Shown here one piece after another: positions 2,619-14,288 of a stretch of 14,372 nucleotides of DNA. Position numbers and translations under genes: made by a program. The DNA comes from Fibrobacteria bacterium. Its GTDB lineage: Bacteria; Fibrobacterota; Fibrobacteria; UBA11236. Under the pieces are notes generated by a model. That model had not been told where the DNA came from and made no database searches. It saw nothing but the letters and a program-made list of their open reading frames with translations. The DNA lies in NCBI GenBank assembly GCA_043745805.1, contig JAYTSD010000007.1:1-14372 (forward strand), given 5' to 3'. Within the stretch, counting starts at the first letter, position 1; the number at the start of each line of letters is the position of its first letter.

Positions 2619-5297
2619 TTACTTCGCCCCAAAATGCTGCTTCAATCCCATCAAAGTCATGTTCTCCGCAATTGCATCATGCGGAATTAATAGATAGATC
2701 CACTGCTTTCCATTACAAGTCTGCGCATGTTCACTAGCCAACTTGCACCATTTCACCGCAGCAGCTTGCTTCGCTAATACTTCTCCATCCATCATTTGAT
2801 TACTGGCTTTAGGTTCGAGCATATAAATACACTCCGAAGTTTCCGCTACAAAGTCAGGCTGGTATTCATGATGGTCTACCCCCCATTTATAAGTAATTTG
2901 AAATTGGCCTTTTGCTGGTTTGAACCATTTTATAGACTCTCTTTCCAGTATCACCGACATTTTACGTTCTGCATCCGAATGAAACTTTTGCATTGGATAT
3001 AGGCAATGCTTAAAGCCTCCGAATAAATACTTCGCCATATTGCTTTTGTCGCTAGGTGAAATATGATAATCGAGAATAGCCTCATTAACCGACTTGGTAT
3101 AAGCACACTCTTTTAATTCTGAAAAGCCTTTAGAAATATGCGTTTCATAATCTACGGCCTCTTCCCAATAATGATTCTGCATTTGGGAATGAATAAAGCG
3201 GGCAATATCCTTTTGATAAACGCGTAAAACTTTCCTCATTTCATCTTCTGGCAAGTAATTTTTGAAATGGGTAACCGTTTGTGAAGCCAAATCGAAAAGC
3301 AAATCAGCATGATCATCATAGGCTATATCATTAAAATCCACTAGGCCGCTCACGATATAATCTTCTAATCTTTTTTCCTCAACTCCACCGCGACCAACAC
3401 CTAATATTTCTAATTGATTCGTGCGCAGATGTTGTATCCATAAATCTTCCGAAGGAGCAGAGTAAGTCAGCGACCTCAAATCAAGTTTAAAAGATTTAAA
3501 GCCAGATTTAACTTGGGTTTTCGGCACCACTATAATGCGCGGTATATTTATGGTTTGCTGCACGGCGTATTCAATGGTTTTTTGAACAACATTTGCAATG
3601 TCTATGCTAGGCCTTAATCCCTCAAGTTCGGTTTGAAAAGGCTGATATTCTTCCGTAACCAACTGTATTATTTCTTTTTGTAAGTTTGCTGCATATAAAG
3701 AATCAATAGAAGGTGCTTTCTGCGGTTGATTTTCCAATTGCTTGATCGCTTCGAAAGTGATTTGAGAAATTTTTAAGTCTTCTTTATTGGTAAATAAACT
3801 TTGATGACTCGATTCTGTTGGCAATTGACTTGTAGGAGTTGATTGTGAAGGTAAACCCAAATTTTTAGCCAAATTTGATTGAGAAATAACCGTTTCGGTT
3901 TTTTCTTGCAATTGATCGCCATTCAATACCACTTGTTGCAAATGAATAGCCGAGCCGGGCTTATTGGCTTCTTCGATAATTTCTTGAAATTTATCATGGG
4001 CGATAATATTTAATCTATCTACTGAAGTCACACCCGTGCGCTTTCCATAAGGAAGACGCAAACCACGGCCTATGGACTGCTCAATGAGAGTCCGTGCATT
4101 CGCGGCCCGCAAAGGAATAATGGTATAAAGATTGGTGACATCCCAACCTTCCTTTAACATATTCACATGGATCACAATTTCCGTTGGTTCATCGGTACGT
4201 TCTACTTTGAGTAAACGTTCCACCATCTCATCTTCTTCCGCACCCGATTTACTCGAATCCACCTGAATAATTTTGGTTTTATAACGACCTTCAAAAAAAG
4301 CATCGGACTGTATGAGCTGCATAAGTTGCGAAGCATGAGTTGTTTCTCTGGCGATAATCAATACAAATGGTTTGATAATGGGTAATCCCATTTCACGCGC
4401 ATAAGTTTCCAACTCCACCTTCACACTTTCATGCAAGCGCACGCCATCTTCCAGCTTAAGCCTTTCTATTTCTTCTACAGACATTTTTGCAGGATTAAAA
4501 TCTTTGCGTGTTACTACTGCGGGTTCTTTCACAAAACCATCGGCCATCGCTACACCCAATGGATAATCATAAATAACATTTTTAAATGGGATAGCCCCTT
4601 TAGATGTTTCTATAAGAGGAGTTGCCGTCAGCTCCAAACCGATCACTGGTTTTAATTCATTGATAGCCTTCACACCCGCAGAAGCGCGATAACGATGGGA
4701 TTCATCCATGATTAAAGCCAAGTCTGATAAACTTGCTAGGTAATCAAAATAACTTTGCCCTATATATTCGGAGAGACGCTTGATACGCGGCATTTTTCCA
4801 CCACGCACTTCTGAATTAATTTTCGATATATTAAAAATATTTATGCGGACGCCACCAAAAAGAGTATCATGCGCTTGGTCATAATTATCACCATTAATTA
4901 AGTTTGGCGGATTAACCGCAAATTCGGCTATACCTTTGAAAACATATTTGGAAGTGTTTGGAGTAAAATCGGTAATGAGTTTATTATAAATCGTTAGATT
5001 CGGTGCTAATACAAAAAAATTTTGAATACCATGCGCTAAATGTAAATAGCTGATAAATGCTCCCATCAAGCGAGTTTTACCTACACCCGTGGCTAAAGCA
5101 AAACAAAGCGAAGGAAATTCTCGTTCGAAATCAAGCACAGAAGGAAATTCACTTTTAATAATCGCAAGTGCATTTTCTAAGTCCACATTTTTTTGTGGAG
5201 GAACGATTTCCGCTATGCGTGCTAATATTTCTAATGATCGACGTTGTGGAGGTCTAAGGCTTAAACGGCCTGATATGGAGTTGATATGCTTATTCAT
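2619..5297 (-). CDS. res: Type III restriction-modification restriction subunit Res (SF2 helicase-like ATPase plus C-terminal PD-(D/E)xK nuclease)
   Basis: LRPPQ (Q motif), FALATGVGKT (Walker A), IMDESH (Walker B), LTATP, VNMLKEGWD, EQSIGRGLR (motif VI); C-terminal YQPDFVAET...MLEPK nuclease motif; downstream of a beta-class adenine MTase; ATGA overlap with the upstream yhcG stop (5294-5297). Confidence 0.9.
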   Translation of the reverse strand: MNKHINSISGRLSLRPPQRRSLEILARIAEIVPPQKNVDLENALAIIKSEFPSVLDFEREFPSLCFALATGVGKTRLMGAFISYLHLAHGIQNFFVLAPNLTIYNKLITDFTPNTSKYVFKGIAEFAVNPPNLINGDNYDQAHDTLFGGVRINIFNISKINSEVRGGKMPRIKRLSEYIGQSYFDYLASLSDLALIMDESHRYRASAGVKAINELKPVIGLELTATPLIETSKGAIPFKNVIYDYPLGVAMADGFVKEPAVVTRKDFNPAKMSVEEIERLKLEDGVRLHESVKVELETYAREMGLPIIKPFVLIIARETTHASQLMQLIQSDAFFEGRYKTKIIQVDSSKSGAEEDEMVERLLKVERTDEPTEIVIHVNMLKEGWDVTNLYTIIPLRAANARTLIEQSIGRGLRLPYGKRTGVTSVDRLNIIAHDKFQEIIEEANKPGSAIHLQQVVLNGDQLQEKTETVISQSNLAKNLGLPSQSTPTSQLPTESSHQSLFTNKEDLKISQITFEAIKQLENQPQKAPSIDSLYAANLQKEIIQLVTEEYQPFQTELEGLRPSIDIANVVQKTIEYAVQQTINIPRIIVVPKTQVKSGFKSFKLDLRSLTYSAPSEDLWIQHLRTNQLEILGVGRGGVEEKRLEDYIVSGLVDFNDIAYDDHADLLFDLASQTVTHFKNYLPEDEMRKVLRVYQKDIARFIHSQMQNHYWEEAVDYETHISKGFSELKECAYTKSVNEAILDYHISPSDKSNMAKYLFGGFKHCLYPMQKFHSDAERKMSVILERESIKWFKPAKGQFQITYKWGVDHHEYQPDFVAETSECIYMLEPKASNQMMDGEVLAKQAAAVKWCKLASEHAQTCNGKQWIYLLIPHDAIAENMTLMGLKQHFGAK

Positions 5298-6484
5298 TTT
5301 GGGGTGCGTTTCTTTTTATGAATAGTTTTTGCAGCTGTATGCAATGAAATAGATTCCATTTCGCGACGTAATTCACGTTGTAAAGTATCTACAGTTGGAA
5401 GAGCATATTGGTATTTGCTAGTGAATATCTGCCTTTGCTTCTCATCCAACACATACTTTACCACCGCATCATTTTTACTTGTGCAAAGAATTAATCCTAT
5501 AGTGGGATTTTCATTTTTTGCTTTTATCTCACGGTCATAATAATGCACATACATTTGCATCTGCCCCAAATCGCCATGACTTAGTTTTTTTGTCTTTAGA
5601 TCAATAATGACATAGCATTTTAGCTTAATATGATAGAATACAAGATCAGGATAAAAATGATCACCTTCTAAGGTCAGTCTTTTCTGTCTGCCCACATAAG
5701 CAAAACCACTCCCCAATTCCAATAAAAAATCTTTGAGCTTAGAAATAAGTGCCTTTTCAACTTTTGTTTCGACAAGCCGATGTGATTCTGGCAAATCAAG
5801 AAATTCAAGAATAAAAGGATCTTTGATAATATCAATAGGTTTGGAAATTTCCTGCCCCTTATTTGCTAGAGCAAGTAAGCCTTTTTTATCTCGACTTTTT
5901 AGTAAGCGTTCAAACAAAAGAGAGTTAATCTGTCGTTCTAATTGCCTCCCACTCCAATTATTGTGAATGGTTTCGATTTCATAAAAATTTCGAGCATCAA
6001 TTCTATCTACCTTCGATAAGGTACGATAATGTCTAGAGCTTAGAGATGTATGTAATTGCCCAGGAGTCCAATTGGCTAATGTCAATTCGTCACCCAGTGG
6101 GTGATGAATTGGAGATAATCGAGATTCGTCATCCACTGGGTGACGAATTGCCTTCAGCAGATTTGGATATGCCTGATAAAAAATGCGCATGTATTTCAAA
6201 GAGCTAATAGAAAATCCTGCTCCATACTCCTTAGAAAGATTTTCTGAAAGGTAGCTGAACAATTGTTCGCCATACCCTGCTCGCTTTTTTCCGCGTTGCA
6301 GCGCTTCCACAATTTGACGACCGATTAACCAACTCGCTTTAACATGGGCGGTATCAACCGACCGTGCAACCTGTGATCGAGATGCTTCCCAAATACTACG
6401 GATTTCGGATAGCAGATTAGCCGGTGGTTTATCGGATGATACCGTAACGGATTTTTTCTTCGATGTAGATGATTTTTCTTTCAT
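5294..6484 (-). CDS. yhcG: YhcG / DUF1016 family PD-(D/E)xK nuclease-domain protein
   Basis: N-terminal WLIGRQIVE...RAGYG...LSKEYGAGFS..SLKYMRIFY; central ARNFYEIE...NNWSGRQLERQINSLLFER and IIKDPFILEFL; C-terminal FLLELGSGFAYVGRQKR, FYPDLVFYH...YVIIDLK, DLGQMQMYV, ENPTIGLILC. ATGA overlaps with both mod (6481-6484) and res (5294-5297). Confidence 0.9.
   Translation of the reverse strand: MKEKSSTSKKKSVTVSSDKPPANLLSEIRSIWEASRSQVARSVDTAHVKASWLIGRQIVEALQRGKKRAGYGEQLFSYLSENLSKEYGAGFSISSLKYMRIFYQAYPNLLKAIRHPVDDESRLSPIHHPLGDELTLANWTPGQLHTSLSSRHYRTLSKVDRIDARNFYEIETIHNNWSGRQLERQINSLLFERLLKSRDKKGLLALANKGQEISKPIDIIKDPFILEFLDLPESHRLVETKVEKALISKLKDFLLELGSGFAYVGRQKRLTLEGDHFYPDLVFYHIKLKCYVIIDLKTKKLSHGDLGQMQMYVHYYDREIKAKNENPTIGLILCTSKNDAVVKYVLDEKQRQIFTSKYQYALPTVDTLQRELRREMESISLHTAAKTIHKKKRTPK
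6083..6150. repeat. Two 29-bp imperfect palindromes (6083-6111 and 6122-6150) at a 39-bp period inside yhcG
   Basis: Plus strand: CAATTCGTCACCC-AGT-GGGTGATGAATTG and AGATTCGTCATCC-ACT-GGGTGACGAATTG. They encode the 13-aa repeat IRHPVDDESRLSP / IHHPLGDELTLAN. Confidence 0.85.
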
Positions 6485-8145
6485 TCACCCTCACTATCAA
6501 AAAGATTGGGCTGCCCCGAACTAGTTTTTTTTGTGATAATAGCGGAGTTATCATAACTAATAGGCGCTTTGGGAAGATTTTCCACATTTAAGCTGTAATC
6601 ATCATGTCCCCATTCGCAACGGGATAAGACTTGCTTAGGGATTTTTTTTACTGTTAAGTTTTGAAAATGCTCACCGTTTCCACGAAAAGCAGAGCATAAT
6701 ACCAACAAAGATCTATCCGGGCCTACCTCATCGCTTAGCAATTGCAATTGCTCTGGACTTAAATTTTGTGTGGTGACATAAATAAAATCGGTTTCGGTAG
6801 AATGGCCATGTTGCCAATACAAACTATCACTAGGTGCGTAAGTAAACCCTTCCAGCTTACAAATGGCTTCGGCTAGCATGGCGGCATTGAATTCTTTACT
6901 CACAACCCAATTGTCCCATTTGTCTTTTTCAAGCAATGATGGCGCAAGTTTGTAATAGCGAAATCCACCTCCACCTTTCCAATTCATAGCTTCGGTGATA
7001 CCACCTTTGTCTTCGTCGTCGATTACTTTTTTAAGACGTGGAATAATGTGGGTATGGCAATGCTCGCCTAATTCGATCATAATCCAACGCCTGCCCATTT
7101 TATGTGCTACTGCACCTGTGGTGCCAGAGCCTGCGAAGGAATCGAGAACGAGATCGCCGGGGTTGGTTGCGATTTGTAAGATGCGATTAATTAATCGTTC
7201 CGGTTTTGGCGTGTCAAAAGGAACAACATCGCGAAACAGCGCCTGAATTTCGCGTTTAGCTTCTTGTGAATGCCCAACTTCTGTGTGAGGCCACCAGCTA
7301 CGAGGAACGAGGCCAGATTGAACCTCATTAAGAAATAATTTGATTGCTGGAACGTTGTCGCCGTCCTGTCCAAATACAATTCGCCCCTCATTGACCAACA
7401 TCCAAAAATCAGACTCAATCATTCGCCAGTGACTACCTTTCGGTGGCGCAATTTTTCGGCCAGACGGAGTCGTAATTGAGTACATCAACCCTTCATGACG
7501 CTCCTCAGCCGCAAAGATGGGACCATGACGCCACGGCCCCCGAGGATCGTTATCAGGATTGTTGTATTTGCTTGTGCTTTTCTCATCACGAGGTAGCAAA
7601 CGTCTAACCTGTTTCCAATTCGCGCCCATTTTTGAATAGACGAGAATATGATTGTGACATGGTGAAATAGCCGCCGCGTTACTGCGCCCATAGAAGTTTT
7701 CCCATACCAATGCCGAAACAAAATTCTTTCGACCAAATACTTCATCGCACAATACTTTGAGGTAATGTGCTTCATTATCGTCGATAGTGATCCACAACGA
7801 ACCTTCGTTCGAGAGCAACTTATGAATGATCTCCAACCGATCTCTTATCAGTGATAACCAAAGTGAATGTTCGATACCGTCGTCATAATGTTCAAATGCA
7901 GAGCCAGTATTATAAGGTGGATCAATAAATACACATTTCACTTTACCTGCGAATTCTTGCTCCAATGCTTTAAGTGCGAGTAGGTTATCTCCGAAAATTA
8001 ATCGGTTATCGAAAATATCGCTTTCAGTAACACGATGTTTTGCGTGATGAGATTGAAGCGGATCTTCTAATAGAATTCGCGGTTCTAATTTTGGGCGAAC
8101 ATCTTTGCCAATCCAGGTGAGTTCAAGTTTGGTTTTTATGGCCAT
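6481..8145 (-). CDS. mod: Type III restriction-modification methyltransferase Mod (beta-class amino-MTase, probably m6A)
   Basis: N-terminal KLELTWIGK, LIFGDNLLALK, catalytic FIDPPYN, WITIDDNE, FDTPKPE, SAM-binding VLDSFAGSGTT, RRWIMIE, WKGGGGFRYY; motif order IV-TRD-I (beta class); paired with res. Confidence 0.92.
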   Translation of the reverse strand: MAIKTKLELTWIGKDVRPKLEPRILLEDPLQSHHAKHRVTESDIFDNRLIFGDNLLALKALEQEFAGKVKCVFIDPPYNTGSAFEHYDDGIEHSLWLSLIRDRLEIIHKLLSNEGSLWITIDDNEAHYLKVLCDEVFGRKNFVSALVWENFYGRSNAAAISPCHNHILVYSKMGANWKQVRRLLPRDEKSTSKYNNPDNDPRGPWRHGPIFAAEERHEGLMYSITTPSGRKIAPPKGSHWRMIESDFWMLVNEGRIVFGQDGDNVPAIKLFLNEVQSGLVPRSWWPHTEVGHSQEAKREIQALFRDVVPFDTPKPERLINRILQIATNPGDLVLDSFAGSGTTGAVAHKMGRRWIMIELGEHCHTHIIPRLKKVIDDEDKGGITEAMNWKGGGGFRYYKLAPSLLEKDKWDNWVVSKEFNAAMLAEAICKLEGFTYAPSDSLYWQHGHSTETDFIYVTTQNLSPEQLQLLSDEVGPDRSLLVLCSAFRGNGEHFQNLTVKKIPKQVLSRCEWGHDDYSLNVENLPKAPISYDNSAIITKKTSSGQPNLFDSEGE

Positions 8146-8146
8146 T

Positions 8147-10012
8147 TTATTTGCTGTTCTTTAAAATTTGAAATCCCTCGACAATTGATTTTATCGTTTT
8201 AATATTTCCGTGTTCAGAATCAATTTCTTTCAGCAATCGTTTTCGATATGTTAAAAAATCGCTTGCTTCTGCAACATCTATTTCTGTTTTTAACCATTCT
8301 TGTAAAGCCTTTTTAGCATTCATACCCGATTCAACATCACTTGTCCAAGTAGGTTTTCCTGGAAATTTAGAAGCAAGGATTATAGTTTCTTCGGGTATAT
8401 TTCCCGGTAAGAAGCGAAAGAAGTCGTTTAAATATTGCAGGTAATTCTTTTTCTCATTATTCAGTTGACTTATTTTATCAGAGCCACTATTAGCAGCAAA
8501 CTGTAATTCTGAAATATTAATACCGGTACAGGAAGTTATTTCATCATTAAGTTGAGATTCACCAATTTGTCCGATATCAATAGGTAATTTTCGTTTTTCA
8601 TCTCCATCTAAAATAAAGAATAGATTTTTTTCTTTCACTCGCGAAAGCGCAACCGCTTCTTTAAAAATATCTTTCGCTCCACCAAGATGAAAATCCACTT
8701 CATACAAATCAGACCAATGTTCATTAAGTGAAATTACCTTATTCACCAATTGTTTTGCAGCTTCATCTTCAACAATGATTCTGATTTTATTGGTAATTGT
8801 GTGTCCAATATGAGAGAATGCCAAAGATGGAAGTGTTTTTGGATATACTTTGAAGTAACCTTCCGGTGTCGGTGAAAATAATTTTATAGCTACTTCAGGT
8901 AAAGTTTCTATTAAGGTGGGACTATGAGTACATAAAATAATTTGGTGTTTTTTTTTGTAAATTTCATCCAATAAAAATTTCAACATTCTTTTTTGGGCAC
9001 CTGGATGTAAAGAAACTTCTGGTTCATCAAGAAGAATCAAAGAGTTTGGAGGTGCATTAATAACTTGATGCACAAGAATTACTATGGAAATTTCACCACT
9101 ACCAGCATACGCTTCGGTATAATTTAATTCGCTAGAATCCGTGCGTTTCGACTCAAAACGTACGGATAATCCATTTTGTTTATATAGTGAATGACGGACG
9201 ATTTTAGCACTATCATATTTTTTTCCGGTGATATTACAAATTGCATCAATTTCGGGCTTTGATAAAAGATCGCAAGGATCATTCAAAGAACGTTTTCGTC
9301 CATTACCATTTCTAATTTTACGGAAATGAGATTTAACACTTCCGTCGAATAATTGCTGTAGCTTTGCAGAATAATGACGCAAATAATCTTGTTTACTCTT
9401 AAATCTTGGTGAATTGGGTTCATCTTCAAAGTAAAAATATTTGTCGAATGCACTTAATTCAGATCTAAAATCTAAATAAAGCACATCCTTCTTTAGTATC
9501 TCCCACCTTGTGGCTTCCCGACCGGGAGCACTTATACCTTTAGGAAGCTCCTCGAAAGCATCCATTCCATATTTATCGCCAGGACGAGCAGGCTCCCAGT
9601 AATCAGGATTAATTTTAAAAGTCCCATCAGATTGTTTTTTTCTAAACTGACTACGATACTTCAAAATCTGAACGTCTCTATTTGCCGCAGGGTTAAAATA
9701 TTCATACCAATAACTGTTTCTCACATCATTTTTTTCTTCGACAATTGGATCGGTATGGGTATTAAACCAATAGTCCCCTGTCGATTTGCCTGATGGACAT
9801 CCAAACAAAGCTTGAAGCGCAGAGCTTTTTCCGCACCCATTTTGCCCGACGAAGACAGTTAGGGGGAAATCAAATTTAATTTCAGTTTTAGCCTCTAAAT
9901 TTTTATAGAAAGGAAAATGAATTTTCTTAATGTAGCTTGGAAAGTTCTCATTGAATGTATTGACATTTGCAAGACCTTGCAGTTTTCTAATTACTGTTTG
10001 CAATTCATTCAT
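8147..10012 (-). CDS. ABC-type (AAA_21-like) ATPase fused to a C-terminal TOPRIM-like domain; OLD-family-like ATP-dependent nuclease
   Basis: Walker A FVGQNGCGKS, degenerate ABC signature YAGSGE, Walker B/D-loop LILLDEPEVSLHP, H-loop IILCTHSP; C-terminal IRIIVEDEAAK...FHLGGA...FFILDGD matches the TOPRIM conserved Glu, glycine loop and DxD. The ATPase call is firmer than the TOPRIM call. Confidence 0.82.
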   Translation of the reverse strand: MNELQTVIRKLQGLANVNTFNENFPSYIKKIHFPFYKNLEAKTEIKFDFPLTVFVGQNGCGKSSALQALFGCPSGKSTGDYWFNTHTDPIVEEKNDVRNSYWYEYFNPAANRDVQILKYRSQFRKKQSDGTFKINPDYWEPARPGDKYGMDAFEELPKGISAPGREATRWEILKKDVLYLDFRSELSAFDKYFYFEDEPNSPRFKSKQDYLRHYSAKLQQLFDGSVKSHFRKIRNGNGRKRSLNDPCDLLSKPEIDAICNITGKKYDSAKIVRHSLYKQNGLSVRFESKRTDSSELNYTEAYAGSGEISIVILVHQVINAPPNSLILLDEPEVSLHPGAQKRMLKFLLDEIYKKKHQIILCTHSPTLIETLPEVAIKLFSPTPEGYFKVYPKTLPSLAFSHIGHTITNKIRIIVEDEAAKQLVNKVISLNEHWSDLYEVDFHLGGAKDIFKEAVALSRVKEKNLFFILDGDEKRKLPIDIGQIGESQLNDEITSCTGINISELQFAANSGSDKISQLNNEKKNYLQYLNDFFRFLPGNIPEETIILASKFPGKPTWTSDVESGMNAKKALQEWLKTEIDVAEASDFLTYRKRLLKEIDSEHGNIKTIKSIVEGFQILKNSK

Positions 10013-11051
10013 TCAGACTTCCTCTAACAATGGATTTACCAATCGCATAAGCTAATTTGGGCGGAACGGCATTTCCTATTAATCGTGCTGCGTGTAAAAT
10101 ACTTGTCGTAACAATTTTGAATTGCTTAGGAAAACTTTGAAGACAAGCTCCTTCTCTTATTGAAAGTGCACGATTTTCTTCAGGGTGACCAAAACGACCA
10201 TTAGAAAGGCTCGTGAATCGAGTAGTAATAGTGGGTGCAGGCTTATCCCAAAACAACCTACCATATACATCACTAAATTGATTGTCTTTACCTTTGTATG
10301 CAGGAAGCTGTAATTTTTTATTCCTTTTCCATGCGGCACGAGTACCTCCATTGATAGGAGTCATTGAAATTCGTTTCAAATTCTGTTCTGAAAGAGCCGC
10401 TGCCACATGCCAACTAATACTTTTACATTTACTTCCAGCTTCAAGTGCTGGAAAGTGATTATGCTTTCCAATAACATCTCGTACACATATGCTTTTCGCG
10501 TTAGAAGGTGCTGGAATTTGAATGACTGCAACACGACTAGCAATTAGAACATATCTGTGACGATTCTGAGGTACACCATAATCATTCGCATTCACTACTT
10601 GTTCGGATATTTGGTATCCCCATTTTTGGATTGCAAGCTTAAAGTCAAGTAATGGGCTATCGGCTTTTTTTGCGATGCCCGGTACATTTTCAATAACTAA
10701 ATATCCAGGTCTAAAATGATCAATAAATTTTTGGAAATGCTCCAATAAAAATGCAGTCTTTTTTGATTTTGTTTTGTCTGATTTAATCAAACTCCAGTAT
10801 TGACAGGGACTGCAACCAATAAAAATTAATTGATCGTCGTATTTTTTAATTCCCGTTTCATTTATTAACTGAGCAGGAGAATATTTAGCTATGTCTACCT
10901 GAATGAACTTGGACTTCGAATGATTAGCTTCATAGGTGTCTTTACATAAGGGATCAATGTCAAGACCAGCTATCACATCCACGCCAGCTTGAGTAAATCC
11001 AAGTGACATTCCTCCACCACCGCAAAAAAAATCAATTGCTCTTATTGTCAT
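10005..11051 (-). CDS. DNA (cytosine-5)-methyltransferase, ~348 aa; probable start is the ATG at 11051 (MTIRAIDFFCGGGG), not 11159
   Basis: Motif I IDFFCGGGG, IV GCSPCQ (catalytic PC), VI IENVPG, VIII YGVPQNRHR, IX LSIREGACLQSFP, X IGNAVPP. The 36-aa extension in the ORF track overlaps the dinD remnant and lies ahead of motif I, which is normally at the extreme N-terminus. The stop overlaps the ATPase start by 8 nt (ATGAATGA). Confidence 0.93.
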   Translation of the reverse strand: MTIRAIDFFCGGGGMSLGFTQAGVDVIAGLDIDPLCKDTYEANHSKSKFIQVDIAKYSPAQLINETGIKKYDDQLIFIGCSPCQYWSLIKSDKTKSKKTAFLLEHFQKFIDHFRPGYLVIENVPGIAKKADSPLLDFKLAIQKWGYQISEQVVNANDYGVPQNRHRYVLIASRVAVIQIPAPSNAKSICVRDVIGKHNHFPALEAGSKCKSISWHVAAALSEQNLKRISMTPINGGTRAAWKRNKKLQLPAYKGKDNQFSDVYGRLFWDKPAPTITTRFTSLSNGRFGHPEENRALSIREGACLQSFPKQFKIVTTSILHAARLIGNAVPPKLAYAIGKSIVRGSLNE

Positions 11052-11109
11052 GATAGAAAGATAAAATTTAAGGTGAGTTGTGTAATAAGCATTTCCAGCT
11101 TTTGAATAA

Positions 11110-11406
11110 TTACCATGCAAAGCGAGAAAGTTGAAAATCAGAAACATCTCGTTTGCCACCTTTTCCTAATTCGATCATTTTGCCAGCATTGGCAAAATGA
11201 TGCTTAGGATCATTTCCCGATTGAACACACGATTCTTTAGCCCTTTGAATAGCCTGTTCAAAGCGCCTCCATTGGATGTATCCTAAAAGGGGTTGTAAAT
11301 CGCGAGCATCCCAATATTCAGCCCCGTGCTCATTGGTCTGTCTTAAACTTTCGAAAACAAAATTACCCATGGGTGGATTGATTAATTTCTCATGATCCTT
11401 TGTCAT
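11110..11406 (-). pseudogene. dinD: Truncated DinD-like (DNA damage-inducible protein D, Bro-N-like N-terminal domain) gene, 98 aa
   Basis: FESLRQTNEHGAEYWDARDLQPLLGYIQWRRFEQAIQRAKESC..SG....HHF....KMIELGKGGKRDVSDFQLSRFA matches the DinD N-terminus. It stops (TGG TAA) where DinD proteins continue CYLI.QNGDP.K; full-length DinD is about 270-280 aa. ATG at 11406 with AAAGGA RBS upstream, just after the SNF2 stop. Confidence 0.78.
11174..11201. repeat. Perfect 12-bp inverted repeat with 4-nt spacer inside the dinD remnant
   Basis: ATCATTTTGCCA-GCAT-TGGCAAAATGAT; falls in the codons for HHFANAGKMI. Confidence 0.85.
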
Positions 11407-11423
11407 TTTTGTTAGTCCTTTCT

Positions 11424-14288
11424 TCAAACCAGCACCCATCGGAAACAAAATAGTGTTGATAAATTTGCCCTCTGCAGCAGCTTCGCTTCAATATCCGTAA
11501 TCAGCTTATCCCTTTTTGCATCAATATCATCATGCGCCACAAATATTGCTTTTCGTTTCGTATTACGTTGAAGCTCCAAAGCCTTTGTAAGTTTTTGTCC
11601 CGCTAACTTTTCTTGAAGAGTAGTTCTCGTTTTCGAAGCTCGATTAGCTTCGCGAATTTGCCTATCCATTTCTTTAATTTCTCGTTCTAAACCGGATTTT
11701 AAATCTTCAGCCCATCCATCTAGCTTGTCTGCTTCAGTGTCGAAAATAATCGCATTGCGCTCGAAAATAGTTTGTTGAATCGTTACTTGCTTTTCAGAAG
11801 CTGAAAGTTGTAGCTTTTTGTAAATATCCGCTTCTATAGAAATGGGGTTCTTTAATGTGCCAGGGATAGTTAGAAATCTACGCGCTGTTTCTTCATCAAG
11901 TATCTCTCCATTATCGGTTAAAGCTGTGAAAATTAAATGGTCTTCGCCTTCATCAAATGATTCAACTGTAAGTAGATTAAGAACTAGCCAACCAGAATTA
12001 TTTCGCAAAGATTCTAAAGCGCTAATTTTGCCTTCATGTTCTTCATAACGAAAAACAATTTCAACCGATGGTAATTCACGACTTTTTGCTTGTTCAAGAA
12101 CTTTTTCAGCAAGAGGATGATTGAGTCGATAAAGATTAGCATCATCAGTTCGTCTTGGAAGTTCATAAAGACCTAGTGGAATATTCTTATCAGTTTCAAA
12201 AGGAGAAGATTTTAATTGAAAAGAACCATCGCTTAAAATTTCAACATGATTATTCAATTCATGTTGAGTAAGTTGCATCAGTAATTTGTCAAAACGACTA
12301 AGACTTGCTCTGGAAGCTTGATCTCGCATCTTAAGTTTTTCGCGAACTTCATCATCGAAGTTTTCCAGCAAGCGTTGCTGAGTATTCGACATGGATTGGT
12401 TGATTTCTCCATCCATTTCTTTTTGTAACTCATCAAAGGCAGCTTGAATTTCCGAATGTTGGCGATATTGTTGATAAATATTGCCTATACGCTTCTCGAA
12501 ATCAACACCTGACTCAATAATGCCAAGCACTTCATCGCTGGCCCCAAACATACCTTCAAACAATTTGAATTTTTGAGAGAGCAATTGGAAAACTCTTTGG
12601 TCTGCCGCGTTTTTGCTATTCAAAAAATTAACGACCACAACATCGTGCTTTTGTCCATAACGATGACAACGCCCAATGCGCTGTTCTATACGTTGCGGAT
12701 TCCAAGGTAAGTCATAGTTTACCACTAAGGAACAAAATTGAAGGTTAATGCCTTCAGCTCCTGCTTCCGTGGCGATCATAATTTTGCCTTCTTCGCGGAA
12801 ATAATCCACTAATGCAGAACGCATATCCGCTGTTTTTGAACCCGTAACACGATCGCTACCTTGATGAAGCTCCAACCAAGCTTTATAAATATTTTTAGAA
12901 CTCTCATCGACATTCGTACCATTAAAAAGCACGATTCCCTCTGCAAAATTGCTATCTGCCAATAAACGCAGTAAATAACTTTGAGTACGACGAGACTCTG
13001 TAAAAATAATAGCCTTAGGAGCAGCACCAATCTCAAGCGCTTTAGCAAACGCGATCTGTAAAGCTTTTAATAAGGCCTTTCCTTTTGAATTTTGCTCTAT
13101 CGAAGTGGCTAATTTGGAAAATGATTCCAAGTCAGCAATTTCTTCTGCAATGGCTATTCTATCCATATTGGATAAAGGTTCAGCAACGGGATCTTCCGGC
13201 CATTCTTCGGCGGTTTCCTCCAGACTTTCATAATCCTTCAAATCATCTTCATTCAATTCTAGGGATGGCTTTACATCGAGTTTAGCCTTAAGGCGTTCAG
13301 CCATAGTGGTGAGAGCACTAGCAATGGCAAATGTAGAAGAAGCAAGAAGTTTGCGCAAAACTAAGGTGATAAGGGTACGTTGACCGGCTGGCAAAGCAAA
13401 AATATTCGGACGGCTCAAATAATTAGAAACTAAATTGTAAAGGCGATTTTCATTTTCGTCTGGAGAAAATTCCTCTACTATCGAAATACGTTTAGTGTAA
13501 GGAACATAAGCCATAACTTGTCTACGTAGGGTGCGATGACAAATAGGTTTTAAGCGATTTTTAAGAATATGAAATGTCTGTTCTCGATCTAAATTTGAAA
13601 ACTGCTCCTTAAAACTTTTTAAATCTCCAAAAATATGATCGTCGATGAAACTGATTAAACCATAAAGTTCTAGTAAAGAGTTTTGCAAAGGGGTTGCAGT
13701 GAGAAGTAACTTAAACTTTTCTCCCAAAGCTAGTTTCAAAGTATTAGCCATGACATTGGATGTTTTATAAACATTCCTTAATCTATGGGCTTCATCCAGC
13801 ACCACCAAATCCCACGGGATGTTTTGAATTTCAGCCGCTTTACTGCGGGCGAATTGATAGGAACAAATTATTACCGAATCTTTTACTAAAAAAGGCTGAA
13901 TATTTTTTTGTTTAATGGCTTCTTTATAAGAACGCGTTTCTAAAATGACACTTTGAAGAAAAAACTTTTCACTTAACTCTTGATGCCATTGCTTACGAAG
14001 GTTTGAGGGGGTAACAATCAGAATACGTCTTTTTCTCTCAGCCCATTTTTGCGAAATGACCAAACCCGCTTCAATGGTTTTGCCTAACCCCACTTCATCT
14101 GCTAATATTGCACCTTTCGATAAGGGGGATTGAAATGCGAAAAGCGCAGCATCCACTTGATGTGGATTCAGATCAACCTTAGCACTCGCTACGGTTCCTG
14201 CAAGTTTGTCTATGGAATTCGTAGAATAACGTTTGGTTAATTCAAACGCAAAATATTTAGCATGATAATCGGTTTGTAATCCCCCCAT
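11424..14288 (-). CDS. SNF2-family (RapA/HepA-like) helicase/translocase associated with the type III R-M locus
   Basis: DLNPHQ, ILADEVGLGKTIEAG (Walker A), VVLDEAHRL (Walker B), LLLTATPLQN, IIFTESRRTQ, ATEAGAEGINLQ, NYDLPWNPQRIEQRIGRCHRYGQ (motifs V/VI); long helical, coiled-coil-like C-terminus. Confidence 0.9.
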   Translation of the reverse strand: MGGLQTDYHAKYFAFELTKRYSTNSIDKLAGTVASAKVDLNPHQVDAALFAFQSPLSKGAILADEVGLGKTIEAGLVISQKWAERKRRILIVTPSNLRKQWHQELSEKFFLQSVILETRSYKEAIKQKNIQPFLVKDSVIICSYQFARSKAAEIQNIPWDLVVLDEAHRLRNVYKTSNVMANTLKLALGEKFKLLLTATPLQNSLLELYGLISFIDDHIFGDLKSFKEQFSNLDREQTFHILKNRLKPICHRTLRRQVMAYVPYTKRISIVEEFSPDENENRLYNLVSNYLSRPNIFALPAGQRTLITLVLRKLLASSTFAIASALTTMAERLKAKLDVKPSLELNEDDLKDYESLEETAEEWPEDPVAEPLSNMDRIAIAEEIADLESFSKLATSIEQNSKGKALLKALQIAFAKALEIGAAPKAIIFTESRRTQSYLLRLLADSNFAEGIVLFNGTNVDESSKNIYKAWLELHQGSDRVTGSKTADMRSALVDYFREEGKIMIATEAGAEGINLQFCSLVVNYDLPWNPQRIEQRIGRCHRYGQKHDVVVVNFLNSKNAADQRVFQLLSQKFKLFEGMFGASDEVLGIIESGVDFEKRIGNIYQQYRQHSEIQAAFDELQKEMDGEINQSMSNTQQRLLENFDDEVREKLKMRDQASRASLSRFDKLLMQLTQHELNNHVEILSDGSFQLKSSPFETDKNIPLGLYELPRRTDDANLYRLNHPLAEKVLEQAKSRELPSVEIVFRYEEHEGKISALESLRNNSGWLVLNLLTVESFDEGEDHLIFTALTDNGEILDEETARRFLTIPGTLKNPISIEADIYKKLQLSASEKQVTIQQTIFERNAIIFDTEADKLDGWAEDLKSGLEREIKEMDRQIREANRASKTRTTLQEKLAGQKLTKALELQRNTKRKAIFVAHDDIDAKRDKLITDIEAKLLQRANLSTLFCFRWVLV

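Follow-up and report, generated by a model that had tools for sequence, protein, structure and literature searches.

A gene for a C5 cytosine DNA methyltransferase (MTase) and a gene for a 621-residue protein, in which an ABC ATPase is joined to a predicted TOPRIM nuclease domain, stand next to each other on the minus strand of a contig from a Fibrobacteria bacterium (GenBank assembly GCA_043745805.1, contig JAYTSD010000007.1, positions 8147-11051). The window analysed here is the whole of that 14.4-kb contig (14,372 nt), which comes from a 99%-complete genome. The pair is a real, conserved and horizontally mobile module and, because relatives of the nuclease almost always adjoin such a methylase, it probably constitutes a restriction-like module of phage defence that has not been described before. 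With moderate confidence, it can be regarded as a defence module of the restriction-modification (R-M) type, with an OLD-like ATPase-TOPRIM protein in the restriction slot. The C5 MTase would mark host DNA with 5-methylcytosine, and the 621-residue OLD-family protein, which is the only nuclease candidate in the pair, would be an ATP-dependent restriction subunit that attacks, or is activated by, DNA without the mark. The OLD-like protein would then fill the slot held elsewhere by GHKL, McrB-like, UvrD-type or SNF2-type partners of the same MTase subfamily. Methylation would protect, the TOPRIM domain would cut unmethylated DNA, and ATP hydrolysis would drive or license the cut.

The genes found around homologues of the ATPase carry much of this argument. 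A scan of one genome per species gave 80 loci, of which 64 constitute the family (ATPase scoring above 100 bits against the window protein) and 16, with unrelated ABC ATPases (below 50 bits), served as controls. C5 MTases were detected with a profile made from strong MTase matches and run on all open reading frames (ORFs) with a threshold of at least 40 bits. Such a gene lies no more than 5 kb from the ATPase in 56 of the 64 family loci, which come from many phyla, and in none of the 16 control loci. It is directly adjacent in 40 of the 64, in either gene order: downstream on the same strand in 26, upstream on the same strand in 12 and convergent in two. It stands 0.5-4.6 kb away in 16 further loci and was not found in eight. 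The adjacent genes often overlap by 1-11 nt, in surroundings that change from locus to locus. An earlier reading of the window from its letters only (hereafter the sequence-only reading) had proposed a module of two coupled genes, and its supposition that homologues of the ATPase would usually be accompanied by a C5 MTase agrees with these counts.

When all flanking ORFs of 65 loci (the 64 and the window) were grouped by BLAST, one MTase cluster was present in 55 of them; the next commonest clusters were Vsr (11 loci), two of GHKL ATPases (8 and 6) and one of Z1-domain-containing proteins (5; the domain was shown by Pfam for two members), and no other recurrent nuclease or helicase cluster was seen among the flanking ORFs of these 65 loci. 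A more sensitive phmmer search found Vsr in 15 of the 64 family loci, and the union of three GHKL seeds found a GHKL ATPase in 14; some loci are ordered C5 MTase, GHKL, ATPase, Vsr. The proposal of a two-gene module thus stands as regards the conserved pair and has to be amended as regards the number of genes, which is not always two. A UvrD-type gene adjoins a single family locus (L041) when neighbours are scanned with Pfam. Among the eight loci without a detected MTase, L009 is a contig of 2.6 kb and L057 is interrupted by an element of the IS21 kind, and both retain GHKL genes that elsewhere stand between the MTase and the ATPase. In L057, from a Flavobacteriaceae genome, the IS21-type element (istA- and istB-like genes, 4533-6849) lies immediately upstream of a shortened ATPase of 463 residues, whose gene it has probably disrupted. 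Three others (L061, L063 and L064) diverge most within the family.

The company of Vsr and GHKL proteins can also be read in terms of repair. The ATPase-TOPRIM protein would process, together with Vsr and MutL-like GHKL ATPases, the T:G mismatches that arise by deamination of 5-methylcytosine, and such an accessory would reduce the burden of mutation that a mobile methylase imposes. Apart from the 15 loci with Vsr, the set of loci in which GHKL stands between methylase and ATPase speaks for this view, as does the fact that MutS is an ABC-type ATPase. The presence of Vsr in these loci counts for the R-M-like reading as well, as a sign that the linked MTases probably methylate DNA. OLD proteins have moreover been reported with 5'-3' exonuclease activity (PMC10568477). 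Still, every characterised OLD-family member in the accessible text of two surveys acts in defence (PMC10568477; PMC12839542), 49 of the 64 loci are devoid of Vsr, and the window genome has no match to it anywhere. The latter extends the remark of the sequence-only reading, correct for the window, that no conventional type II restriction endonuclease or vsr gene is adjacent. The pair is furthermore patchy in distribution (one of 40 relatives' genomes), compositionally foreign and placed inside a defence operon. All in all, a role in repair is very unlikely.

Further evidence for a functional link between the two genes comes from their divergence. The set used for this comparison consists of 59 ATPases, including that of the window, that score at least 200 bits and have at least 560 residues, of which 50 are accompanied by an MTase of the subfamily scoring above 300 bits. 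Across these 50 pairs, the pairwise identities of ATPases and MTases are correlated with r = 0.615, which none of 2000 permutations reached; shared host ancestry can inflate this value, as it can the measure of arrangement change that follows. When the 59 ATPases were placed in a quick maximum-likelihood tree, the labels for gene arrangement were clustered, yet at least 19 changes are needed; order and orientation would thus have switched repeatedly with the linkage preserved, which argues for selection on the linkage rather than on a single operon layout, as is the case for R-M pairs. It could be objected that the two defence genes are independent of each other and are merely carried along together in defence islands, given that defence genes cluster and become embedded in each other (bioRxiv 10.1101/2024.01.29.577857) and that the window is such an island. 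An absence of functional coupling is nevertheless hardly credible in view of the direct adjacency and short overlaps in so many phyla and surroundings, the covariation of identities and the lack of a methylase in every control locus.

The dependence between the two genes seems to be one-sided. In a survey of 296 genomes of the phylum, in which the MTase subfamily was sought with a profile of 41 sequences at E<=1e-90 and the ATPase at E<=1e-60, the MTase subfamily was found in 21 genomes, the ATPase in eight and both in seven. The two genes are adjacent in G000, G033, G046, G155, G187 and G190, and they lie on separate contigs in G264, a fragmented genome; the eighth ATPase copy (G048), in a genome without an MTase of the subfamily, is cut by a contig end. 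Hence, 7/8 of the genomes with the ATPase carry the MTase subfamily, as against 7/21 of the genomes with the MTase that carry the ATPase. The nuclease would nearly always need the methylase, whereas the methylase would not need the nuclease. Such an asymmetry is what a dangerous restriction subunit and a protective methylase would be expected to show, and it is the main ground for ranking the R-M-like reading first.

Regarding the MTases that occur without the ATPase, one locus was fetched from each of the 14 genomes concerned. The neighbour of the MTase is a GHKL ATPase in 12 of them, a fusion of UvrD with a PD-(D/E)XK nuclease in one and an SNF2-like helicase in one, and the clusters also hold AAA_5 (McrB-like) proteins with RE_LlaJI, a NERD-helicase, and helicases with MZB (DUF1998-type) proteins. 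The MTase subfamily would then be the modification partner of several alternative ATPase/helicase machines. The claim that a C5 MTase is the partner thus holds for this ATPase family, and it has to be restricted on the side of the MTase, which also serves other partners. Within loci L117-L129, from other genomes of the phylum, a second C5 methylase and an AAA_5 protein lie near the GHKL-linked MTase in L118, L121 and L127, and an AAA_5-like protein with an RE_LlaJI protein in L120 and L128.

The ATPase ORF (8147-10012, minus strand) begins with ATG and encodes a single polypeptide of 621 residues, matched in Pfam by AAA_15 (1.4e-20) and AAA_21 (1.2e-19), as well as by SMC_N. About 2000 homologues were found; the best 120 listed have 578-629 residues and 38-58% identity, and 27 full-length sequences from these 120 were aligned for the examination of motifs. 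In the Walker A motif (GQNGCGKSS, 9821-9847, minus strand), residues G56, N58, G59, G61, K62 and S64 are invariant in 27/27, and so are the signature GSGE at 304-307 (E307 included) and H363. Walker B (LLDEPE, 327-332) is invariant in the same sequences with the exception of L327 and E332, each of which is kept in 90% or more of them. Towards the C-terminus, E415, GG444-445 and D469-G470-D471, which have the appearance of a TOPRIM signature, are invariant as well. The sequence-only reading had described complete ABC-ATPase motifs followed by such a signature, and both are conserved throughout these homologues.

The ABC ATPase head (residues ~26-409, 8786-9937, minus strand) carries family-specific inserts at residues ~66-300. 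In the predicted structure, the head (model residues 22-409) aligns with those of SMC, Rad50 and PtuA with VIA-align Z scores of 17-18.7, and the full-length model (predicted local distance difference test score, pLDDT, of 86.5) has as best Foldseek match the OLD protein of Thermus scotoductus (TsOLD, 6p74, E 3.5e-13), followed by PtuA-type ATPases of retrons, retron Eco8 and Gabija GajA. Because the ATPase head dominates such full-length matches, residues 395-621 were also folded alone, from an alignment of the window sequence with 39 of 57 available relatives. The resulting model (pLDDT 91.7) comprises the TOPRIM-like domain and a helical region (residues 410-621, 8150-8785, minus strand, with E415, GG444-445 and DGD469-471); the glutamate, the second glycine of GG and DGD are invariant in 40/40 of the aligned sequences, and the first glycine is kept in at least 90%. 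The top five Foldseek matches of this domain all fall in the C-terminal parts of OLD proteins from Xanthomonas and Burkholderia (E 4e-3 to 1.4e-2). A search independent of Foldseek, over 48,161 chains, was headed by BpOLD (Z 8.2, 171 residues aligned, root-mean-square deviation 4.7), AriB (Z 7.7, 152 aligned) and TsOLD (Z 7.5, 125 aligned), with retron Eco2, GajA, the TOPRIM domain of T7 primase and a small TOPRIM protein further down the list. At the level of sequence profiles, PADLOC returned no family at E<=1 for the C-terminal 243 residues alone, Pfam gave only chance-level rows (E<=5) for the insert (residues 66-300) and the C-terminal domain, and no Pfam model for OLD or TOPRIM matches the protein. 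Since neither Pfam nor PADLOC has a model that matches the C-terminal domain alone, its assignment to TOPRIM is founded on motifs and predicted structure. The invariant E and DxD, together with structural matches of the OLD type (Z 7.5-8.2), give moderate support to a TOPRIM nuclease, as had been supposed from the signature. The protein would accordingly display both hallmarks of the OLD family, i.e., N-terminal ABC ATPase motifs and a predicted C-terminal TOPRIM fold with the glutamate and DxD. Homologues in the ESM Atlas bear generic names alone, e.g., 'ATP-dependent nuclease' or 'AAA family ATPase'.

The MTase ORF extends over 10005-11159 (minus strand) from a GTG, or over 10005-11051 from the ATG at M37, which gives a protein of 348 residues. 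Homology favours the ATG at 11051 as the start, since relatives begin 3-10 residues ahead of the DFFxGxGG motif. The protein matches PF00145 in Pfam (2.4e-53) and MTase_II in PADLOC (2.8e-87), where the DrmMII and DruM models also match. Motifs FxGxGG, PCQ, ENVPG, QxRxR and GNAVPP are all present, with core residues invariant in 41 linked MTases; by PF00145 and this full catalytic set, the predicted product would qualify as the DNA methyltransferase of a type II R-M system. Among solved structures, the linked MTase subfamily is matched best in sequence by eukaryotic DNMT1 catalytic domains (E 4e-59), which outrank M.HaeIII and M.HhaI. As for the junction, direct reading of 9980-10040 places the stop TGA of the MTase at 10007-10005 and the ATG of the ATPase at 10012-10010, in agreement with the 8-nt overlap that the sequence-only reading had given for the intact MTase and its 621-residue neighbour (ATGAATGA, 10005-10012, minus strand). 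A Shine-Dalgarno-like AGAGGAAG is found just upstream of the overlap. Prediction of a complex between ATPase and MTase, both supplied as alignments, scored 0.00 and gave no verdict; it was counted neither way on binding.

Several observations weigh against the R-M-like reading. Three actinobacterial loci (L041, L050 and L058), flanked by GmrSD, UvrD or Z1-domain genes, have no C5 MTase within 7 kb, although their ATPases retain the catalytic E and D. Another three (L034, L039 and L042) carry a gene for an HpaII-type restriction endonuclease, which in L034 and L039 stands between an HpaII-like MTase and the ATPase, and in these loci the ATPase looks like an add-on rather than the only restriction subunit. 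On the structural side, support for the TOPRIM nuclease is moderate, the C-terminal domain alone having no Foldseek match at E<=1e-3, and no methyl-reading or sequence-recognition domain is recognisable by Pfam in the insert or the C-terminal domain. Among characterised relatives, P2 Old and PARIS are reported as non-specific nucleases or tRNases triggered by phage cues (10.64898/2026.07.10.737580), and HEC-04 is reported to defend as a single gene without a methylase (bioRxiv 10.1101/2024.01.29.577857).

These observations bear on a second mechanism, already put forward beside the R-M-like one in the sequence-only reading, in which the OLD-like protein is a latent suicidal effector, acting on DNA or tRNA, that is restrained by the methylase protein or by ongoing methylation. 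It would fire when a phage blocks methylation or restriction by means of an S-adenosylmethionine hydrolase, a methylase inhibitor or a DNA mimic. PrrC-EcoprrI and PARIS work as guard systems. The one-sided dependence described above suits an antitoxin-like methylase equally well, the window copy is embedded in a type III operon, L034, L039 and L042 hold the ATPase together with a restriction endonuclease gene, and HEC-04, the best PADLOC match, defends alone. Furthermore, in PARIS and P2 Old, sensing is the task of the ABC ATPase, and the TOPRIM part acts as the tRNase (PMC12839542; 10.64898/2026.07.10.737580). According to a 2026 survey (PMC12839542), BREX and R-M-like systems recruit OLD-ABC plus TOPRIM modules as suicidal effectors held in reserve, and in a 2026 preprint (10.64898/2026.07.10.737580) P2 Old is reported to be a tRNase that responds to DNA structures; it is because of these two reports that a guard or abortive module has to be kept in consideration. 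On the other hand, the methylase has no other nuclease partner in most loci and therefore there is no restriction system to guard. The linkage is to C5 methylases alone, mostly of one subfamily, whereas PARIS links to R-M systems generally, and the same MTase subfamily is elsewhere paired with other ATPase/helicase partners, some of them of restriction type. A guard arrangement is accordingly possible, albeit doubtful, and the choice between the two mechanisms is narrowed.

A third mechanism would unite features of both. The ATPase would survey DNA and be held inactive by the 5-methylcytosine pattern that its partner writes, and unmarked foreign DNA would open the TOPRIM domain, which would cut tRNA or any nucleic acid and thereby abort the infection. 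While such a sentinel gated by methylation is rather unlikely, it would, if true, be the first case of an epigenetic self-mark licensing an abortive effector of the OLD type, joining the logic of R-M to that of abortive infection, and it would make the family a fifth, methylase-coupled class of OLD proteins.

Returning to the pair itself, its position in the window suggests a horizontally acquired, low-GC cassette between an SNF2 helicase gene and a type III mod gene. The GC content of the ATPase gene is 0.343, compared with a genome mean of 0.400, and only 0.9% of 2090 genome windows of the same size are as low; the hand counts on which the sequence-only reading had called the gene AT-rich (16/60 and 17/60 within it, 28/60 in the SNF2 gene) are exact. 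At third codon positions, the GC contents of the pair (0.246 and 0.241) lie below those of Mod (0.384), Res (0.333) and SNF2 (0.290). The ATPase is single-copy in the window genome, and an orthologue was found in one of 40 relatives' genomes, with 45% identity and outside the same family. Searches of mobile elements gave one match in 72,556 plasmid records at E<=1e-30 and none in phages at E<=1e-20.

Homologues of the SNF2 gene occur in nine of 208 genomes of the class, and six of these loci were fetched. In G087, G156 and G088, the gene directly after SNF2 is long and Mod-like, and a large gene lies downstream of it (in G087, the two have N6_N4_Mtase and ResIII domains), the slot being empty. 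G032 has between SNF2 and Mod an ABC ATPase of 1032 residues (SMC_N/AAA_21) with a weak C-terminal match to Ppl, and G046 has the order SNF2, C5 MTase, ATPase as in the window, the N-terminus of its ATPase being 56% identical before the contig ends. In one Patescibacteria genome (L022), a cluster of C5 MTase, GHKL and ATPase lies just upstream of a homologous SNF2-Mod-Res unit. SNF2, type III Mod and Res look like a conserved unit of three genes with a variable slot after SNF2. At the edge of the pair, a 112-residue ORF (11110-11448, minus strand), which overlaps the end of the SNF2 gene by 25 nt, resembles DinD/Bro-N proteins and covers positions 12-92 of the 288-position DinD model NF008573 and positions 12-92 of 281 in PADLOC PDC-S13, i.e., the N-terminal third alone; it is probably the truncated remnant of an earlier embedded gene. 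Because the contents of the slot vary, such a scar adjoins it and the pair has its own composition, the pair is taken to be a cassette that occupies this variable slot in the type III-like operon. Embedding of defence genes within other systems has been described (Payne et al., 2024; bioRxiv 10.1101/2024.01.29.577857).

The surrounding genes can be summarised as follows. All nine window ORFs of at least 100 residues lie on the minus strand. The SNF2 helicase (954 residues, 11424-14288; SNF2-rel_dom and Helicase_C in Pfam) is the first gene of the SNF2 and type III Mod/Res operon and scores 687.6 bits against the DrmD_b model, below its cut-off of 950 bits. After the C5 MTase (10005-11051) and the ATPase (8147-10012), the type III mod gene (N6/N4 methyltransferase, 6481-8145; PF01555 8.1e-45, PADLOC MTase_III 1.7e-220) begins 1 nt past the ATPase stop. 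Between mod and the type III res gene (2619-5297; ResIII 7.4e-22, PADLOC REase_III 7.8e-195), a YhcG/DUF1016 PD-(D/E)XK nuclease gene (5294-6484; PADLOC PDC-S02, 1.3e-132) overlaps each of them by 4 nt; a homologous Mod-YhcG-Res order is found in G194 (L106). Further on are a PEP-CTERM protein (1839-2546, weak Pfam match) and a PIF1-type helicase (102-1832, Pfam PIF1), the N-terminus of which has a weak match to DUF559 (2.7e-05, residues 7-56), presumably a Vsr-like endonuclease fold. From SNF2 through Res, neighbouring genes overlap or are spaced by 1 to 58 nt. A consensus scan of 7900-11600 gave 14 promoter-like sites, with 12.8 expected in shuffled sequences, and no minus-strand terminator. 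With such spacing and no internal promoter or terminator signal above chance, one long operon from SNF2 to Res is plausible, and the pair is probably co-transcribed with the type III-like operon. Elsewhere, on contig C9 of G000 (L084, 586-3489, plus strand), a second C5 methylase (369 residues) is followed by GmrSD_N/DUF262 (354 residues) and HEPN_MAE_28990 (240 residues) proteins, which corresponds to the methylase-ParB-HEPN trio listed in a 2013 survey of HEPN proteins (PMC3710099).

If the pair is R-M-like, it would represent a restriction-type system that uses a TOPRIM nuclease, and no restriction enzyme is known to have TOPRIM as its catalytic fold. The methylase would also offer an easy handle on a general question about OLD proteins, namely how self is told from non-self, and one MTase subfamily acting as a hub for interchangeable partners (OLD-like, GHKL, McrB/LlaJI-like, UvrD-nuclease and SNF2) would be a natural experiment in effector swapping. 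OLD proteins are classified by their partners, PARIS being the fourth class, and a fixed C5 methylase partner in a widespread class would add a fifth. The first three, in the scheme of Dot et al. (2023), are single genes, genes with UvrD partners, and retrons (PMC10568477). In that 2023 review, the words 'methyltransferase' and 'methylase' do not occur.

Compared with the OLD families, TsOLD is the best full-length Foldseek match of the window protein and OLD TOPRIM domains are its best C-terminal matches. Class 1 (P2 Old, TsOLD) consists of single genes, whereas the window family is accompanied by a C5 MTase in 56/64 loci. The UvrD/PcrA/Rep-like helicase (GajB) that goes with GajA in class 2 (Gabija) is absent from the window ORFs by Pfam. 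For class 3 (retron Eco8), no reverse transcriptase domain was detected by Pfam in window ORFs of at least 100 residues, no search for the non-coding RNA (msr/msd) having been made. In class 4 (PARIS), ATPase and TOPRIM protein (AriA and AriB, respectively) are split, whereas the window protein is one polypeptide, the ATPase part of which alone is matched by the AriA model (79.8 bits). What would distinguish the window family from all four classes is a fixed C5 MTase partner, together with its own inserts.

The best PADLOC match is HEC-04 (1.4e-31, 107.7 bits), which covers profile positions 160-381 of 494 and for which PADLOC gives no cut-off. Both are fused ABC ATPase-TOPRIM proteins, with the Walker A lysine at residue 62, but the window protein is about 130 residues longer and has a conserved MTase partner; the pair is not clearly HEC-04. 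HEC-04 is reported as a defence gene of the ATPase-TOPRIM type that has been validated, acts alone and occurs embedded in other systems (bioRxiv 10.1101/2024.01.29.577857), and IbfA as its homologue, likewise a single gene without a methylase partner (PMC12111858). Two distant relatives on plasmids (L115 and L116) were also devoid of a C5 MTase in the 6 kb inspected, these stretches being bounded by the ends of the records. In MADS, DNA methylation is reported to separate self from phage and an OLD-like ATPase-TOPRIM module (MAD3-MAD4) to be needed (PMC13662399). The window pair resembles it in methylation as a possible self mark and in an OLD-like ATPase/TOPRIM nuclease. Unlike the pair, MADS has eight genes, with ATPase and nuclease separate and a methylation that is apparently adenine-dependent (PMC13662399), and its MAD3 model NF047739 gives the window protein 24.9 bits, far from the cut-off of 420.

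Other systems share the MTase or the layout. Elsewhere, the same MTase subfamily stands beside GHKL proteins, AAA_5 with RE_LlaJI, or helicases with MZB, as in systems of GHKL/MORC type, LlaJI type and DISARM class 2, respectively; the window partner differs from these in uniting an ABC ATPase and a TOPRIM nuclease in one protein. Neighbourhoods of GHKL/MORC genes that contain cytosine methylases and Vsr were described by Iyer et al. (2008), in whose accessible text TOPRIM is named for topoisomerases alone (PMC2292703). DISARM itself was set aside, the DrmA, DrmB (DUF1998) and DrmC (PLD) domains not being found in the window and DrmD_b scoring below its cut-off. Hma, a trio of SNF2 helicase, methylase and ATPase, is similar to the window in having these three on one strand and also hosts embedded defence genes. 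It is nevertheless rejected on domains, HmaA being SNF2 with DUF3883, HmaB DUF1156 and HmaC a DUF499 ATPase (PMC8565338; PMC11232893), whereas the window has PF00145 and AAA_15/AAA_21. The literature searched, to which REBASE, DefenseFinder, Krishnan et al. (2020) and supplements did not belong, holds no description of a pair of C5 methylase and OLD-like ATPase-TOPRIM protein. Among the systems tested, the pair matches no named one, given the different domains of Hma, the partial and weak match to HEC-04 and an OLD review in which no methylase is mentioned, which is in line with the sequence-only reading, where no characterised system with a C5 MTase as partner was known. The pair is a variant of OLD nucleases and of R-M-like defence and not a separate category.

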